A stretch of 64,000 nt of DNA from a bacterium (GTDB lineage: Bacteria; UBA8248; JACPRG01; G963555815): positions 160,001 through 224,000 of the forward strand of contig CBDHDG010000004.1 of NCBI GenBank assembly GCA_965261595.1, in the 5' to 3' direction. Of the stretch, positions 3,943 through 17,376 are shown piece by piece. The notes under the pieces were generated by a model that saw nothing but the letters and a program-made list of their open reading frames with translations, did not search any database and had not been told where the DNA came from. Every line of letters begins with the position of its first letter. Position 1 is the stretch's first letter. A program made the position numbers and the translations under genes.

Positions 3943-4475
3943 GACACCAGCTCATTGCGTGATTGCACATCGGAAATTCCCGGCGGATGGCAGTATCCCA
4001 GCGCCCCGGGAAATTGTAAAGCGCCGGGGTTCATGAAAGACCTTCTCGGCGGCCGCCCGGTGTTCCAAACCCGAGTGATGCGGGCGGACTCTTCCTCCCT
4101 CCCCCCGACCTTTTCGGCGAGTTCGCGAATTGCGGCGGCCAAGAATTATCCGACGGACAGAATGCTGAGGCATCCCCCATTTCTCCGCGTGAATAAACGA
4201 AGCTCGAAGGATCTTTTGTGACACCGGCCTTGAGGAATGATTTTCTTCACCCGCACAGCCGATGAAAATTGAGGATCACCGGCAAAGAAAGGCTTTGACG
4301 CCGCGTCAAGATTTGATTAGTATTTTTTTTTTGGAATCGTGGCAGATCTCGACAGCCCGGAATGCGTGGGATGGAGGCGGTCCGCCGCGGGGGAGAGCCG
4401 TGCTTCGGAAGGTTCGCCGGAGGCGGTGCGTCAGTAACACGGGGAAGATGGAACAGGGGGAGGTTGAAGGTCGGT

Positions 4476-11227: not shown

Positions 11228-11331
11228 GCCAAAAGAATCTCGGGGGGTGTGTGTGGAAGGAGGCGTAATCCGAACGCGGAAGAAGGTCCGGATAATCCGC
11301 GAGGGCCGATCGATCAGGATGACCCGGAATC

Positions 11332-11535
11332 TCAGAGATTGCCCGTGAAGTAGAGGCCGGCGAATGCCACCACCACAATCAAACCCAGCATGAGCCACAG
11401 AAACTGGTCCATCTCGCCCGCGGAGAAGTATCGGCTATGATGGATATCCATCTGCTGTCGTTCGATTCCGGAAAGCTTCTTCTTGTGCTCTTTGAATCTC
11501 GGCCGCTCCGGAGAGGGGCGCCGCCTGGTCGCCAA
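11332..11535 (-). CDS. small hypothetical protein with C-terminal TM helix
   Basis: 67-aa ORF with a basic N-terminus and hydrophobic C-terminus; no recognised motif. Confidence 0.45.
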   Translation of the reverse strand: MATRRRPSPERPRFKEHKKKLSGIERQQMDIHHSRYFSAGEMDQFLWLMLGLIVVVAFAGLYFTGNL

Positions 11536-11545
11536 GTATTTCGAC

Positions 11546-11622
11546 CGCGATTATATACTTGACCCCTCGACCCACTCATGTAGTAAAACGGACCCAAAAG
11601 GCCGAACCACAAGATGTAGGGG
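11546..11622 (+). repeat. solo, diverged IS1595-type end related to the 14445/15352 ends
   Basis: CGCGATTATATACTTGAC...CCACTCATGTAG...ACCACAAGATGTAGGGG has the same layout as 14445-14521. Confidence 0.6.
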
Positions 11623-11703
11623 TTGACATTCTCCCTATTTCTGCTCGAAACTGAAGCTCCTTAGATCACTAGACTTTGATAGCAGAGATTGCACACAGGT
11701 TCT

Positions 11704-14321
11704 TGGAGTTACCCCGGTTTCGTGGAGAGTTAAGCACTTGGGTTTTCAGGGTGTGCGTTGTTGTCTCCTTTCGTAGTTAACGGGTGACAGGTTGTCGATG
11801 GAGGAGTGCCGACGACGCGGGTTGTAGAAGCCCTCGATGAACCCGAACACCTCCGTGCGCGCCTCGGCCCGGGTGCGGAAACTGTGGCGAGCGAGGAGCT
11901 CGCACTCCAGCGTGGCGAAAAAGCTCTCACACAGCGCGTTGTCGTAGCAGTCCCCGACCGAACCCATGGAGGGACGCACGCCTGGACCGCCCCTGGGTTA
12001 TTGGACACTCGGGTGAGGGTATTCGACCTCATGCGGCCTCCGCAACTTGAGCGAGTTTTTCCTGCCTTGCCTGGGCCGGCGTTCGGTAGCCGTAGCCCTC
12101 GAGAATCCAATGATGGTTGTACAGGTTCTTGAACTCAAGCAGCGCCCACCGCAGTTCCTCTACGGTGGCGAAAGAGCGCACCCACAGGAGATTCTCCTTC
12201 AAGATGCGGATAAACCACTCACAGTAGCCATTTCCCTCGGGCGCCCGCACGAAGCTGGGCGAACTGGTCATGCCCAGGTAGGCGATCTCCCGCTGAAAGT
12301 CATCGGACAGATAGGCGGGGCCGTGGTCGTGACGAACTTTAAGCCCCTCGGCGACGTCCGCCTCCAAGCCGGCGAAGCGCTCGGCGACCCCCTGCCGGAT
12401 CGGCTCCAGGGCCTCGAAGCGGTTGCCGCTCTTGGCCGCATGGATCCCCACGCAGTCCACCGAGCAGTGATCCACCGCCACGAACACCGAGGCCACCCCC
12501 TCCTCGGTGGTCACCGTCGTCGTCATGTGCGTGCCCCACATTCGGTCGGGCCGCTCGGTGCGGATGGTCCCGTTGTGGGCCTTGGGACCTCGGGGTTTGC
12601 CCACCCGGTGGGGGGCCTGAAGCCCCGCCTCCCGCATCAGGCGACGCACCCGCTCCTTGCTGGTGCGGATGCCCGCGAAGCGTAGCCTCGCCCACACCTT
12701 GCGGTAGCCCTCGCCATGGAAGGGAGAGTCCTCCAGGACCTGCCGGATGTGGCCGAGGAGTTCCGCATCGGTGCACGGGCCCACAGGGCCGCGCTTATTG
12801 GGCGTGGGGCGTTCATGAACGGGGACCGCCTCTCGCCGCCGTTGCGCGTAGACCGTGGAGCGCGCCAAGCCCCAAAGGGCGCACACCCGCTTCAGGCCGT
12901 AGGCTCTGCCCGTGGAGGTGAAGCGGGCCTGACTCATCGCCTCCACCTCCTGCCGGCTAAAGGGCGGCCGGCCTCCAGGCGGTCGATCTTCTCCCGCAGG
13001 ACCTCGCCCTCCATCGTGAGTTCGCCCACCTTGGCCTTGAGCCGGGCGTTCTCCTCGGCCCGCTCATCCGCCGGGCGGGCTTTGAGCGCCGCCTCGCCCC
13101 CGCGAAGGAACGCCTCGCGCCAGGCGGAAAGCCGAGCCGCTGTCGTGCCCAACTCGCGGCAGAGCGTCTCCAGGCTCTCGCCCCGCAAAAGACGCAGGAC
13201 CGCCTCCCGCTTGCGCCTGGCAGGAGAACCGACCCCGCTCACTGCGATGCCATGGGGCCTTGGCTCCGTTCGCCCTGCGGGCGCCCTCCGCCAAAGCCCC
13301 CTCTTGCTTTTGTTCGTTCATCGCGACACCCCTTTCTCCATGAATCATGGATCAATCGAGTGTCCAACAAAACCCTAGAGCGGGGGACGCCCGCCTGCCG
13401 GCAGCGCTGCCCAAAGGCGACCGAGGTGTACTGCGTGCCCTGGTCGGAGTGGTGGATGACGGCCCGGGGACGGCGCTTATACAGCGCCATGTCGAGCGCG
13501 TCGAGCACCAACTCGGCCCGCAGGTGTGTGGCCATCGACCACCCCACGATGCGCCGGCTGAACGCATCGGGCGCCACGGCCAGATACAAAAACCCCGCCC
13601 ATGTCGGAACGTAGGTGATGTCGGCCACCCACAGCCGGTCGGGGGCCTCGGCCGTGAAGTTGCGGTCCACCAGATCAGGGGCCGGCCGCGCCTCCTGCCG
13701 GCGCTGCGTCGTGCGCACTCCCTTGCGCCGACTGACGCCCGCAAGTCCCGCCCCACGTATCAGCCTGGCGACGCGCTTGCGGCCCACACGCACTCCCTCA
13801 GCCTCCAGCTCGGCATGGACGCGCGGCACGCCGTAAGTCCCCCGAGAACGCTCGTGGATCGCCTGAATGCGTTTGGTGAGCGCCCGATCGGCACACGAGC
13901 GGGCACACGGCGCGCGCCTGCACCACGCGTAGTAGCCGCTGGAGGAGACGCCCAGCACCCGGCACATGGTGGCGGTCCGATACATGGCCTGGTTCGCCCT
14001 CACGAACCCGTAGATCCGGACGGGATCGAATCGGTATCCCGAGCAAACCAGGCCGCGGCTTTTGCCAGGATCTCCCACTCATCGCTCGTGAGCCCGTCTT
14101 TGCGACGCCCCTCGTCGACGTCGGCTTGATGGGCCCAGGTGCGGATCGTCTGCACCGAGGGCTCGAACTCGCGCGCCAGCGCCTCGGGCGTGCGTCCCGC
14201 CCAGACCAACTCTACCATCTGGCGGCGGAACTCCATTGGATAGCGTGGGTGAGTCTGTGGCATCGTGAACACCTCCTTTACCCCCAAATCATCAGGTGTC
14301 CACCAAACCGGGTCAACTCCA
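11704..14321 (-). mobile_element. IS3-family element (copy 1), interrupted by a nested IS and with an internal orfA deletion
   Basis: Ends TGGAGTTACCCCGGTTT / AAACCGGGTCAACTCCA. Near-identical to 35340-36599. orfB is split at 11983-13387. Confidence 0.9.
11983..13387 (-). mobile_element. 1.4-kb IS3-like element, copy A (orfA frameshifted; orfB 12029-12937)
   Basis: Ends TGGACCGCCCC... / ...GAGCGGGGGA. 4-bp TSD CGCC. rve integrase ORF. Confidence 0.92.
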
Positions 14322-14444
14322 ACCAGAGCCAAAACTCGCGGGTTGCGTAATACCATAGGTGACCAAGATAACAGGTGCTTACACGAGCATTTCAAGAGCA
14401 AAATTCAAACCAAAAGTTGATTATCACGAACCAGAAGAAAAAAA

Positions 14445-15352
14445 CGGAATTATGTACTTGACGCAGACGACCACAACATGTAGATCGTCCCCGCGTCTCG
14501 GCTGACCACAAGATGTAGGGGCATGCTTCAACTCAAGTCATGGTGGAGTTGGATTCGCAATTATGCGCTTGACTCAACCGAAGAGGGATCATACAATGAC
14601 TGAATCATGCTCAATTGGCTTCGCAAAGTCGCCCTCTTTTTGGCGGGTGAATTACTGCGGAGCTGGATATGGCCCATTGCGGTCACGGCGGCTGGCGTCA
14701 TGATCGGTTTTGCGCAACATATCCAGTTGTTCAACCTATATGTTGGAGCGGTCATTCTGTTTTCAGTTTCCTCTATGGGATTGTTGCGATTCAGCGAATG
14801 GCGGTATCGTAATAGAGTTGCGGATATGCTTAACTTTCATAGTGTGAGAACTGACAGAATAATCGACAAAGCTGGTGTAGTAAAATCACTGCGGATTGGT
14901 GCTACGTTTAACAACAAAGCTCTTTTCCCGGTGACATTTGAGGTTGTAAATGTCGTCTCAACATTTGATAAGTTGTACCCGACAAAAGAGCCATATGCCA
15001 AGAATAGCTATACCATCCCTGCAGGAGGGATGGGGTGGTTTGACGATCACTACATATCCTATAGAGCAGAAGAGAAGCGGCGTTTTTGAGGGCGGTCTTG
15101 AATTTGAGTTTAAGTACGGAAGAAAAGGAAAAACCAACAACACATTGCATATAAACAAAAAGTTGTTTTTACACTTCAATGAAAAGGGCGATATTCAGCG
15201 CGTGGATTTTATCGATCAATGAAACCGAACGATCTGATAGAGCGCATCTTCTGGAAACGGATCGATGGAAGCATGCCCCTACATCTTGTGGTCAGCCGAG
15301 ACGCGGGCGCGACCTACATGTTGTGGTCGTCTGTGTCAAGTATATAAATACG
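14445..15352. mobile_element. non-autonomous IS1595-type mobile cassette with passenger gene
   Basis: ~85-bp imperfect terminal inverted repeats (CGGAATTATGTACTTGAC.../CGTATTTATATACTTGAC...). 8-bp direct repeat GAAAAAAA at 14437-14444 and 15353-15360. No transposase inside. Confidence 0.8.
14607..15222 (+). pseudogene. hypothetical membrane-anchored passenger protein, frameshift near 15055
   Basis: ORFs 14607-15089 and 14950-15222 join into ~200 aa with two N-terminal hydrophobic segments; AT-richer than the flanks. Confidence 0.55.
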
Positions 15353-15362
15353 GAAAAAAATG

Positions 15363-15767
15363 ATGGCGGATAAGCCGAAAAGCACGTCCCTTTCCCAACC
15401 CGTTCATCACAAAGACGCGGAATTTCCCGCGATTGAATGCGTCCCCAATCAATATGCGGGGCGAGATTATACTGTTGACCTATCGATCCCCGAGTTTACC
15501 TGTATCTGCCCGGTCACCGGTCAGCCGGATTTCGCAGAGATCCGCGTGAAGTATGTCCCGGGAAAGACGCTGATCGAATTAAAATCCTTGAAGTTCTATA
15601 TCCAGGCCTACCGGAGCGTCGGCATTCACCACGAATCGGGCGTCAACAGGATCCTCGACGATTTGGTCAATGCTTGCGCGCCCCGAAAGATGGAGGTTGT
15701 TGGAGATTTCTCGGTCCGGGGGGGCATCAAGACCGTTGTGCGGACGGCCTACGAAAGCCGGGAATAG
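15363..15767 (+). CDS. queF: NADPH-dependent 7-cyano-7-deazaguanine reductase (preQ1 synthase)
   Basis: PEFTCICPVTGQPDFA, IELKSLKFY, HE, F.VRGGI. Confidence 0.95.
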   Translation: MADKPKSTSLSQPVHHKDAEFPAIECVPNQYAGRDYTVDLSIPEFTCICPVTGQPDFAEIRVKYVPGKTLIELKSLKFYIQAYRSVGIHHESGVNRILDDLVNACAPRKMEVVGDFSVRGGIKTVVRTAYESRE

Positions 15768-15775
15768 CTACGATC

Positions 15776-16444
15776 TCACGGGGTGGACCGCGCATGAAGA
15801 CCCGCGAGAATCGCCCGGGCGCTGAGAACATTGGTGAAACCCGACAGGCCCTTCAGAACCCCCGTGTGGACCTCGGCGTCCCAGGTGGTCATCATGTCGT
15901 GGGCCATCACCACCCGGAAATTCCGTTGGTAGGCGTCGAACGCCGTGGCTTGCACGCAGTAATTCGTATAGACCCCGGTCAGGATCAGCGTTTCGATGTT
16001 CAGCGCGCGCAGTTGCTCTTCCAGATCGGTTCCGAAAAAGCTGCTGAACCGGACCTTGACGATCTCCAGGTCGAAGCCGGAAAACCCCTCCCCTTCCACC
16101 GTCCGCGCGCCCCAGGACCCGGGTCGCAGACCGTCCTCTTTCAGAAAAGGCCGGCTCTCGATGTGCAGCCCCGCCTCGACGGGCGCGCCGTCCGGGCCGC
16201 AGGCGTATTCCGTCCGAACGTTGATGAGCCGCGCGCCGCTCTGTTTGGATGCGGCCAGGAATTCGGCCAACGGACCCATCAGGGCCGAGATGCCGGGACA
16301 TTCCAGCCCGTTGCGGGCATAAATCCCCTCCGGCGCGCAGAAGTCGTTCTGGACGTCGATGAGAAGAACCGCCGTGGATTCGGGCCGAAGCGTGAGGGGA
16401 ATCCGCGGGAAGTCGCCCACCGCCTGACGAAATGAATCGTTCAT
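15776..16444 (-). CDS. isochorismatase-family cysteine hydrolase
   Basis: LLIDVQNDFC, K.RFSSFFGTDL, TGVYTNYCVQATAFDAY. Confidence 0.88.
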   Translation of the reverse strand: MNDSFRQAVGDFPRIPLTLRPESTAVLLIDVQNDFCAPEGIYARNGLECPGISALMGPLAEFLAASKQSGARLINVRTEYACGPDGAPVEAGLHIESRPFLKEDGLRPGSWGARTVEGEGFSGFDLEIVKVRFSSFFGTDLEEQLRALNIETLILTGVYTNYCVQATAFDAYQRNFRVVMAHDMMTTWDAEVHTGVLKGLSGFTNVLSARAILAGLHARSTP

Positions 16445-17376
16445 GTCGCGCCTCCTTTCGCGGCCTCCGCCGGGTTGGGCCGGAGCGCCTGCTCCAGAAT
16501 GTCCATCCCCACCCGTTTGCTGAAGCCCTCGATCAGTTTCATGGTGACCTTCCCGGGGACGGCGCCCCGGAGGGATTGGCCGTTGATGAGTCCGGCGGGC
16601 AGGATGGCGAAACTCGTGGTGCACAAGAAGGCCTCGTCCGCGTTGACCGCTTCGAAGATCGTCATGTCCCCTTCCCGGACAGGAATTCCCGCTTCCCCGG
16701 CGATCTCGAGAATCTCCATCCTCGTAATCCCTTCGAGGACATTCAGCAAACTGGGCGTCAGCAATGTTTCTCCGGACACCACAAAGAAATTGGCGAAACT
16801 GCTCTCTGTGATGAAACCGCGCAAGTCCAGCATCAGGGGATAACAGCGCGATTCCACGAGACGGGCCTGAAGGTTCGCCTGGATGTGGTTGGATTTGTTC
16901 GTGATCTTGGCCCGCGAATCCAGGGCCTCCGGCGGGGTGCGCCGGATCGCGGGCGTCACCAAGTGCGCGCCGCGGTGGAAGTCGCTGGCATAGGCCGTGA
17001 AATCCAGCGGGACGCAGTAAATCGCGACCGTCGCCGGCCCGGATACGCCGTGGGTGGATCGAAGGCTCACGCCCCGGCTGATATTGTGCCAGATTTGATA
17101 ATCCTCTCCCGCGCCCAGAAGATGCCGGTTCCGATTAAGGACCTCGTGGGTCAGCTTCTCCAACTCGTCCAGTGACAGGCCGGGGTCAATCTGCATATAC
17201 CTCATGGAGCTTTCAAGCCGCCGCAGGTGGCGGTCCAGCCGGAAGGGCGCCCCTCCGTACGTCCGGGTCATCTCGTAGACGCCGTCTCCGGCCCTGAACC
17301 CGGCGTCGAAAATCGAGACCTTCGCCTCGGATTCCGGGACGTATTCACCGTTGAGAAAAACCGTTCTCTCGCTCAT
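16441..17376 (-). CDS. class IV aminotransferase (D-amino-acid/branched-chain type)
   Basis: SIFDAGFRAGDGVYE, ITESSFANFF, LEGITR, ADEAFLCTT. Confidence 0.88.
   Translation of the reverse strand: MSERTVFLNGEYVPESEAKVSIFDAGFRAGDGVYEMTRTYGGAPFRLDRHLRRLESSMRYMQIDPGLSLDELEKLTHEVLNRNRHLLGAGEDYQIWHNISRGVSLRSTHGVSGPATVAIYCVPLDFTAYASDFHRGAHLVTPAIRRTPPEALDSRAKITNKSNHIQANLQARLVESRCYPLMLDLRGFITESSFANFFVVSGETLLTPSLLNVLEGITRMEILEIAGEAGIPVREGDMTIFEAVNADEAFLCTTSFAILPAGLINGQSLRGAVPGKVTMKLIEGFSKRVGMDILEQALRPNPAEAAKGGAT

Follow-up and report, generated by a model that had tools for sequence, protein, structure and literature searches.

The work of De Palmenaer et al. from 2004 is said to be the source for mobile insertion cassettes such as MIC231, and the transporter insertion sequences (IS) of the IS1595 family were reportedly treated by Siguier, Gagnevin and Chandler in 2009; a target-site duplication of 8 bp is reportedly the value that Siguier (2009) and ISfinder give for this family. 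In the passage of PMC3129680 that deals with them, mobile insertion cassettes consist of IS-type ends around a passenger, without a transposase, and their activation is presumed to take place via a cognate transposase. Parts of the same article and of PMC11891212 also describe IS that carry passengers, ISNha5 (IS1595 family) being named as an example.

The 908-bp element analyzed here occupies positions 14445-15352 of the window, i.e., of the whole 64,000-nucleotide stretch of DNA that was analyzed, and lies directly before queF. It resembles MIC231 (derived from IS231 of the Bacillus cereus group) in having IS ends around a passenger, no transposase, target duplications and a presumed activation in trans. 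However, its parent family is IS1595 and not IS4, each of its 85-nt ends contains three conserved blocks, and what it carries as cargo module is a shortened IS from a second IS1595 lineage, with the gene broken in 10 of the 11 copies. The relatives found in this work are similar to the IS1595-family transporter IS, with a zinc ribbon and an ISXO2-like DDE transposase, short terminal repeats, 8-bp duplications and at least one passenger, whereas the window element carries no transposase. The likeness to MITEs is also clear (non-autonomous, multi-copy, with terminal inverted repeats and target duplications at AT-rich intergenic sites), but the element is larger (908 bp) and contains a promoter-like site and a protein-coding passenger, so that it is not purely non-coding. 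The element can be classed among the mobile insertion cassettes, here derived from the IS1595 family, a kind already known, and is very probably a non-autonomous derivative, with transposon ends and a passenger but no transposase, that is mobilised in trans. Three aspects of it are of moderate interest: it is a chimera of two IS1595 lineages, its ends are long and tripartite, and its passenger belongs to an unnamed protein family found repeatedly as cargo of IS1595 elements. Within the portions of the literature covered by a limited search, neither an IS1595-derived mobile insertion cassette nor the passenger family was found described. The features of the element are as follows (window positions).

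14437..14444, no strand: left copy of the target duplication GAAAAAAA, 8 bp
14445..14529, + strand: left terminal inverted repeat, 85 nt, three conserved blocks
14445..14462, + strand: terminus block of the left repeat, followed by ACCACAAnATGTAG sub-repeats at 14470-14483 and 14505-14518
14556..14573, + strand: inner complete terminus of a second IS1595 lineage (L052 type), nested in the cassette
14569..14597, + strand: promoter-like site TTGACT-17-TACAAT, a consensus match only
14607..15222, + strand: passenger gene, 204 aa when intact, frameshifted in the window copy
15226..15267, no strand: 42-nt linker of unassigned source (the match to L052 ends before it, at element position 781)
15268..15352, - strand: right terminal inverted repeat, 85 nt, sub-repeats at 15279-15292 and 15314-15327
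15353..15360, no strand: right copy of the target duplication GAAAAAAA, whose final A also starts the first ATG of queF

The two 85-nt repeats are 92% complementary, with their arms 738 nt apart, and were the only inverted pair detected when the region 13500-16500 was searched for repeats. The G+C content of the interior is 40-52%, compared to 62-64% across the seven contigs of the genome, and no transposase ORF was found inside the 908 bp in the ORF list or with Pfam and NCBIfam. Inverted repeats of about 85 bp, an 8-bp direct repeat on both sides, an AT-richer gene inside and a non-autonomous nature had all been proposed in the original prediction, and each of them was recovered here; its central inference, a non-autonomous cassette of IS1595 type, was right. 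Since the 908-bp element is devoid of the DDE transposase with zinc ribbon and ISXO2-like domain, it has to be considered a derivative of IS1595 and not an IS.

A BLAST search with the 908 bp against the whole genome (G000, 6.17 Mb in seven contigs) retrieved 11 full-length copies at 99.8-100% identity, spread over four contigs (six on C7, three on C6, one on C3 and, on C4, the copy of the window). The recurrence of the whole 908 bp 11 times at such identity excludes chance as the source of the structure, and the multi-copy nature anticipated by the original prediction was thus found, together with its 8-bp duplications. The latter were perfect, and always AT-rich, in 6 of the 11 copies: ATTGAAAT (twice), AATCATTT, ATTTTTTT, TTAAAAAT and, in the window, GAAAAAAA. 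Duplications of 8 bp were also found in two autonomous relatives that will be described below, G012 and L052. The other five copies had no matching duplication, and their flanks were equal to those of other copies. Two of them form a reciprocal pair, in which the copy at C7:906512 is preceded by AGGATGAT and followed by GAAAAAAC and the one at C6:1668178 has them the opposite way round, and three more (C7:8746, C7:30300 and C3:130268) form a chain with GTCGAAAT and ATTTGATT in common and two unpaired 8-mers. These exchanged flanks are explained as the pattern expected from recombination between copies, which at a 908-bp repeat is indistinguishable from assembly mis-joins. From the point of view of annotation, units of 908 bp with 85-nt ends and exchanged flanks explain repeat-mediated rearrangements in an IS-rich genome. 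The load of IS1595-family transposases in G000 is very high, with dozens of tblastn matches on six of the seven contigs and several of the genes present in at least three identical copies; the genome measures 6.17 Mb, and the draft of G001, from the same genus, 3.7 Mb.

The ends of the cassette belong to a recognizable type. When ten ends from G000 and from G006 (another genus of the same family) were aligned, three conserved blocks separated by variable spacers became apparent, namely the terminus CGnnnTTATnnnCTTGAC, followed by CCACnAcATGTAG and ACCACAAGATGTAG, all of them invariant or nearly so across ends from the two genera. This tripartite pattern had 30 occurrences in G000, four in G006 and none in the remaining 49 genomes of the class; a reversed control gave no match, and there were no matches in metagenome contigs either. 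The terminus pattern is common to other IS1595 elements, i.e., C6:703413-705505, G012 and G014. Ends of the ISNha5 subgroup of IS1595 follow the consensus CGGnnTT; the left end of the cassette begins with CGGAATT and the right one with CGTATTT. The terminal block and the two copies of ACCACAAnATGTAG in each 85-nt end are putative binding sites for the transposase. An element of 840 bp without transposase and with the same tripartite ends, about 74% identical, was found in G006 (C1:384261-385100, equivalent to L055:2001-2840). Inside it, ARAGORN identified a 79-nt tRNA-Ser(GCT)-like gene (L055:2392-2470) that may be a tRNA-like remnant, as 79 nt is short for a tRNA-Ser. Another element, of 765 bp (L057:3309-4073), is similar to it.

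We have found in the same genome an autonomous IS1595-family element with the same kind of ends, as the original prediction had suggested should be sought. It is 4133 bp long (C6:352755-356887) and has an intact transposase beside one of its ends (L002:3987-4922, - strand), with matches to PF12762 (E 1e-39), PF12760 (E 2.5e-9) and, over all 215 positions of the model, NF033547 (E 1.4e-60), so that the zinc ribbon and ISXO2-like DDE enzyme absent from the 908-bp element is present here. Over 72 nt, the transposase-proximal end shares 95.8% identity with the right repeat of the cassette, and over 77 nt it shares 90.9% with the left one; related ends of 72-77 nt occur elsewhere in the genome. Its passengers are three, a 539-aa GmrSD_N and HNH protein and two ORFs without assignment, and in this way the same ends were also found associated to a different cargo, as had been predicted too. 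The opposite end of this element has diverged much more than the transposase-proximal one, and the flanks of the element have 7 nt in common, in an offset arrangement that defines no clean 8-bp duplication. Compared to those carried by plasmids, which are annotated only as “IS1595 family transposase”, the enzyme is at most 53% identical. Four other sequences are related to the 4133-bp element or have these ends.

C7:1038945-1040149: 1215-bp internal-deletion derivative of the 4133-bp element, containing its positions 1-1065 and 3984-4133
C6:1190943 onward: copy of the 1215-bp derivative, interrupted by an IS3 element
C7:790727-793347: 2.6-kb element with these ends, duplication CTTGGATT and an IS1380 insertion inside
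11546..11703 of the window, + strand: far-end fragment of the 4133-bp element, 98.1% identical over 158 nt to its positions 1-158

More diverged long ends (72-81% identical) bound C5:447437-450659 (L071), which has no transposase and carries as cargo an N6_N4 DNA methylase fused to a Mrr-like endonuclease domain, the gene being split by an IS3-family insertion; this methylase-Mrr relative is a further case of such ends with different cargo. Another IS1595-family element, of 2.1 kb (C6:703413-705505, L004), has a 296-aa transposase and a convergent 260-aa passenger that was assigned by PADLOC to the candidate defence family PDC-S42 (E 1.3e-40), its match to DUF7946 being weak and below the Pfam cutoff. 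An ORF at L003:2853-3191 gave only a sub-threshold match to IS6.

We propose that the cassette would be moved by DDE transposition of the cut-and-paste or copy-and-paste type, with the enzyme supplied in trans, and would insert into AT-rich 8-mers that become duplicated in the process. The likeliest helper would be the transposase of C6:352755-356887, a candidate picked by the similarity of the ends alone. It is also conceivable that a different IS1595-family transposase, present or already lost, mobilises the cassette and that the similarity of its ends to those of the 4133-bp element reflects shared ancestry only. The genome offers many candidates, several of them multi-copy by tblastn, the 4133-bp element has a single complete copy (the second copy of its transposase gene, on C5, is without both ends), and the interior of the cassette derives from another lineage, with a transposase that shares 74% identity with the enzyme encoded at C6:703616-704506. 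However, the ends of the other elements in the genome reach at most about 80% identity to the 85-nt repeats, and the inner L052-type terminus has no partner opposite, so that an enzyme of the inner lineage would find one end only. For these reasons we regard such a substitute enzyme as unlikely, although it is an alternative to be taken seriously, and we keep the 4133-bp element as the probable source of the transposase.

The interior provides evidence about how the cassette originated. Element positions 117-781 have 89% DNA identity to L052, an autonomous IS with transposase and cargo found in a gammaproteobacterial MAG. The match extends from an intact L052-type terminus (14556-14573) to just beyond the stop codon of the cargo gene, at which point L052 enters its transposase gene, and a 21-nt inverted match to the inner terminus is located at the far end of the L052 element. 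These limits of the homology give the layout of the cassette: a long end, 26 nt, the left end of the second lineage with the passenger, 42 nt and the other long end. The cassette is a chimera of two IS1595 lineages, seen fused into a single unit. The left end of the second lineage and its passenger would have become trapped between two long ends of the first, with deletion of the second-lineage transposase.

The passenger appears in the window copy as two overlapping ORFs in different frames, 14607-15089 (160 aa) and 14950-15222 (90 aa), the former corresponding to the beginning of a 204-aa gene whose frame is interrupted by an additional T at 15057. In the copy C7:234873-235779 (907 bp) that T is missing and there is a single ORF of 204 aa, the frameshift being present in the other 10 of the 11 copies. 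Outside the assembly, a contig of the public run X1 is without the T at 15057 and one of the run X10 has the window form. The 204-aa form is the norm of the family, given that most of the phmmer matches were 200-220 aa long and aligned from end to end; against 1.84 billion representatives this search gave 299 matches at E <= 1e-3, 146 of them at E <= 1e-10. The family is unnamed as well as widespread. Pfam, NCBIfam and PADLOC gave no family for the protein, none of the nine matches in a search of 5.8 billion proteins had a name, and in Atlas the matches were only to unnamed “hypothetical protein” clusters. A tblastn search against plasmids produced no match, among 400 genomes of the class of G051 the family was found only in G051 itself, and loci of the family were found three times in genome contigs and never in metagenome contigs. 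The AlphaFold model (pLDDT 95.3) consists of two long N-terminal helices (residues 2-36 and 41-69) followed by an eight-strand beta-sandwich, and the helices, judging by their hydrophobic sequence, are read as a membrane hairpin. Leads to a function obtained with Foldseek against the PDB were discarded, all of them being generic beta-sandwiches (ApaG, a TRAP subunit and the luminal domain of TMEM106B) with query TM-scores of at most 0.38. The promoter-like site matches the consensus at 10 of 12 positions and was the best of four such sites, where shuffled sequences led us to expect 1.8 +/- 1.2; it ends 10 nt before the ATG of the passenger, and the inner IS terminus supplies its first hexamer.

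Outside this genome, homologues of the passenger adjoin an IS1595 transposase at all five loci found, and at four of them both genes share one IS1595 element bounded by inverted repeats.

G012: 1825 bp, 38-nt inverted repeats, duplication AAAAGATG, transposase and cargo convergent
G014: 1762 bp, 25-nt inverted repeats, transposase and cargo within the repeats
L052 (Gammaproteobacteria MAG): about 1.75 kb, duplication CTAAGATA, cargo protein 83% identical
L054: 3271 bp, 25-nt perfect inverted repeats, cargo and transposase both within
L053: no repeats detected, frameshifted transposase at a distance of 169 bp

The last of these, at 3501-5151 of L053 (a Candidatus Oxydemutatoraceae MAG), contains a cargo homologue with one in-frame TAG next to the frameshifted transposase, and looks like a decaying copy. 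This constant association, together with the failure of Pfam, NCBIfam and PADLOC to assign a function, would fit a protein with a mobility function of its own (a new transposase or an essential cofactor), in which case the element would be autonomous. Such a role is highly improbable, considering that the 10 frameshifted copies are 99.9-100% identical, and thus it was the broken form that was amplified, that the model, a helical hairpin plus beta-sandwich, has no nuclease-like match, and that every autonomous relative has a standard IS1595 transposase. One may speculate that the hairpin/beta-sandwich protein is a dedicated companion of IS1595 with a role in the life of the element itself, for instance as a regulator anchored in the membrane or in exclusion or defence, and that the lineage with long tripartite ends is a platform for defence cargo that often sheds its transposase, a broad reading that we advance very tentatively and think rather improbable. 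The cargo to be counted for such a platform comprises the GmrSD-HNH protein, the methylase-Mrr fusion and the 204-aa membrane protein, with a short-ended IS1595 carrying the PDC-S42 candidate. In any case, marking an unnamed and widespread family as a recurrent IS1595 passenger provides a handle on its function.

The insertion site in the window deserves a separate description, for which two further features and the retained native region are needed.

12029..14319, - strand: IS3-family insertions, right boundary approximate (NF033516, E 5.2e-44 and 1.9e-74)
14320..14436, + strand: native upstream region of queF, kept to the left of the insertion and recognized by matches to G001 and to contigs of runs X13 and X14
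15360..15767, + strand: queF, coding for preQ1 synthase (TIGR03139, E 4.8e-44; PF14489, E 1.7e-29)

This is the sole queF copy found in the genome, and it has two adjacent ATG codons, at 15360 and 15363. The original prediction had placed the end of the duplication 2 nt before the queF ATG, which is correct with respect to the second ATG but not to the first, overlapped by the last A of the repeat. It had also held that the element replaced the upstream region of queF, and on this point it has to be amended. The sequence 14320-14444 is native (14321-14423 is 80.6% identical to G001, and 14320-14436 is identical in X13 and X14), and thus the region was retained and the element simply sits between it and the ATG. 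The insertion puts 908 bp between the native upstream region and the start of the gene, so the only queF gene is cut off from its native ribosome-binding region. The window copy would be a very recent insertion at that ribosome-binding region, between the native upstream DNA and the ATG. The passenger gene and queF have the same orientation, and nothing resembling a terminator was detected on the + strand from one to the other; queF mRNA would most likely come by read-through from either the internal promoter-like site of the cassette or the native promoter. Only small shares of the sampled sequence words were present in RNA runs. Given the separation of queF from its ribosome-binding region, strains that are identical in other respects may express queuosine biosynthesis differently. 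No Rfam family, riboswitches included, was found in the region upstream of queF in the window or in G001, the scan giving one chance miRNA match (E 0.95) that was rejected.

Further upstream there is a pile-up of IS (11543-14319), formed by a 158-nt IS1595 fragment and then two sets of IS3-family transposase ORFs (12029-13242 and 13239-14401), and IS3 of these types also interrupt several other elements in the genome. The IS3-family insertions part native upstream DNA at 11275-11542 from that beginning at 14320. In G001 just 81 bp lie between the blocks homologous to either side of the pile-up.

Empty sites were found for all three of the copies that were examined in this respect. At queF, the element is absent from G001, of the same genus, which matches the window at 94% from three bases beyond the end of the element; upstream of queF it has the homology to 14321-14423 mentioned above and then a single A-rich target directly before ATGATGG. 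Also in G001, the site of the copy C7:234873-235779 is empty, both flanks being 96% identical with an overlap of 10 nt, and in G006 that of C7:465435-466342, with flanks at 95% and 89% and an overlap of 8 nt. The empty site before queF that the original prediction expected in relatives is thus present in G001, and it was also detected in public data. In Logan contigs of the runs X1, X13 and X14, which come from three studies, position 14436 is joined straight to 15352, with the element absent and 0 differences over the 117-122 nt to the left of the junction; the contigs continue through queF up to 15800 (X1), 15798 (X13) and 15533 (X14, where the contig ends). The contigs of X13 and X14 have, before 14320, native sequence like that of G001 at the place where the window has the IS3-family insertion. 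The empty allele skips 915 nt rather than 916, and has therefore one G more than would result from a clean loss of the element and one copy of the repeat; this extra G may be polymorphic or may come from a miscall in a short run of G. The run X10, on the other hand, contains a 798-nt contig of the element identical to the window; the queF flanks have no coverage in this run, which does not speak for their absence. These empty public contigs indicate that the insertion at queF is a strain-level polymorphism and is recent. With several copies, target duplications and empty sites, past mobility is well documented, and the element is a clean and recently active example of an IS family that loses its transposase yet spreads, with the queF site still polymorphic in public data.

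The fallback of the original prediction, an invertible or site-specific recombination switch before queF with a coincidental A-rich direct repeat, might be suggested by long inverted repeats around a promoter-bearing segment directly upstream of a gene. The scatter of 11 copies through the genome, whose 8-bp duplications differ, and the empty sites in relatives and public contigs refute it, and it is also at odds with the absence of a recombinase gene in the element (the adjacent ORFs scanned were IS3-family transposases) and with ends that are common to transposase-bearing IS1595 elements.

The comparison with G006 showed one additional peculiarity. The flanks of one of the copies (C7:464099-467680, L024) are 89-95% identical to C1:2654860-2658088 of G006 across genera, while elsewhere, at the queF and rplT sides, the flanks of the two genomes are 68-74% identical. 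The region C7:464099-467680 has itself probably been shared horizontally, and its counterpart in G006 is followed by a tandemly repeated segment.
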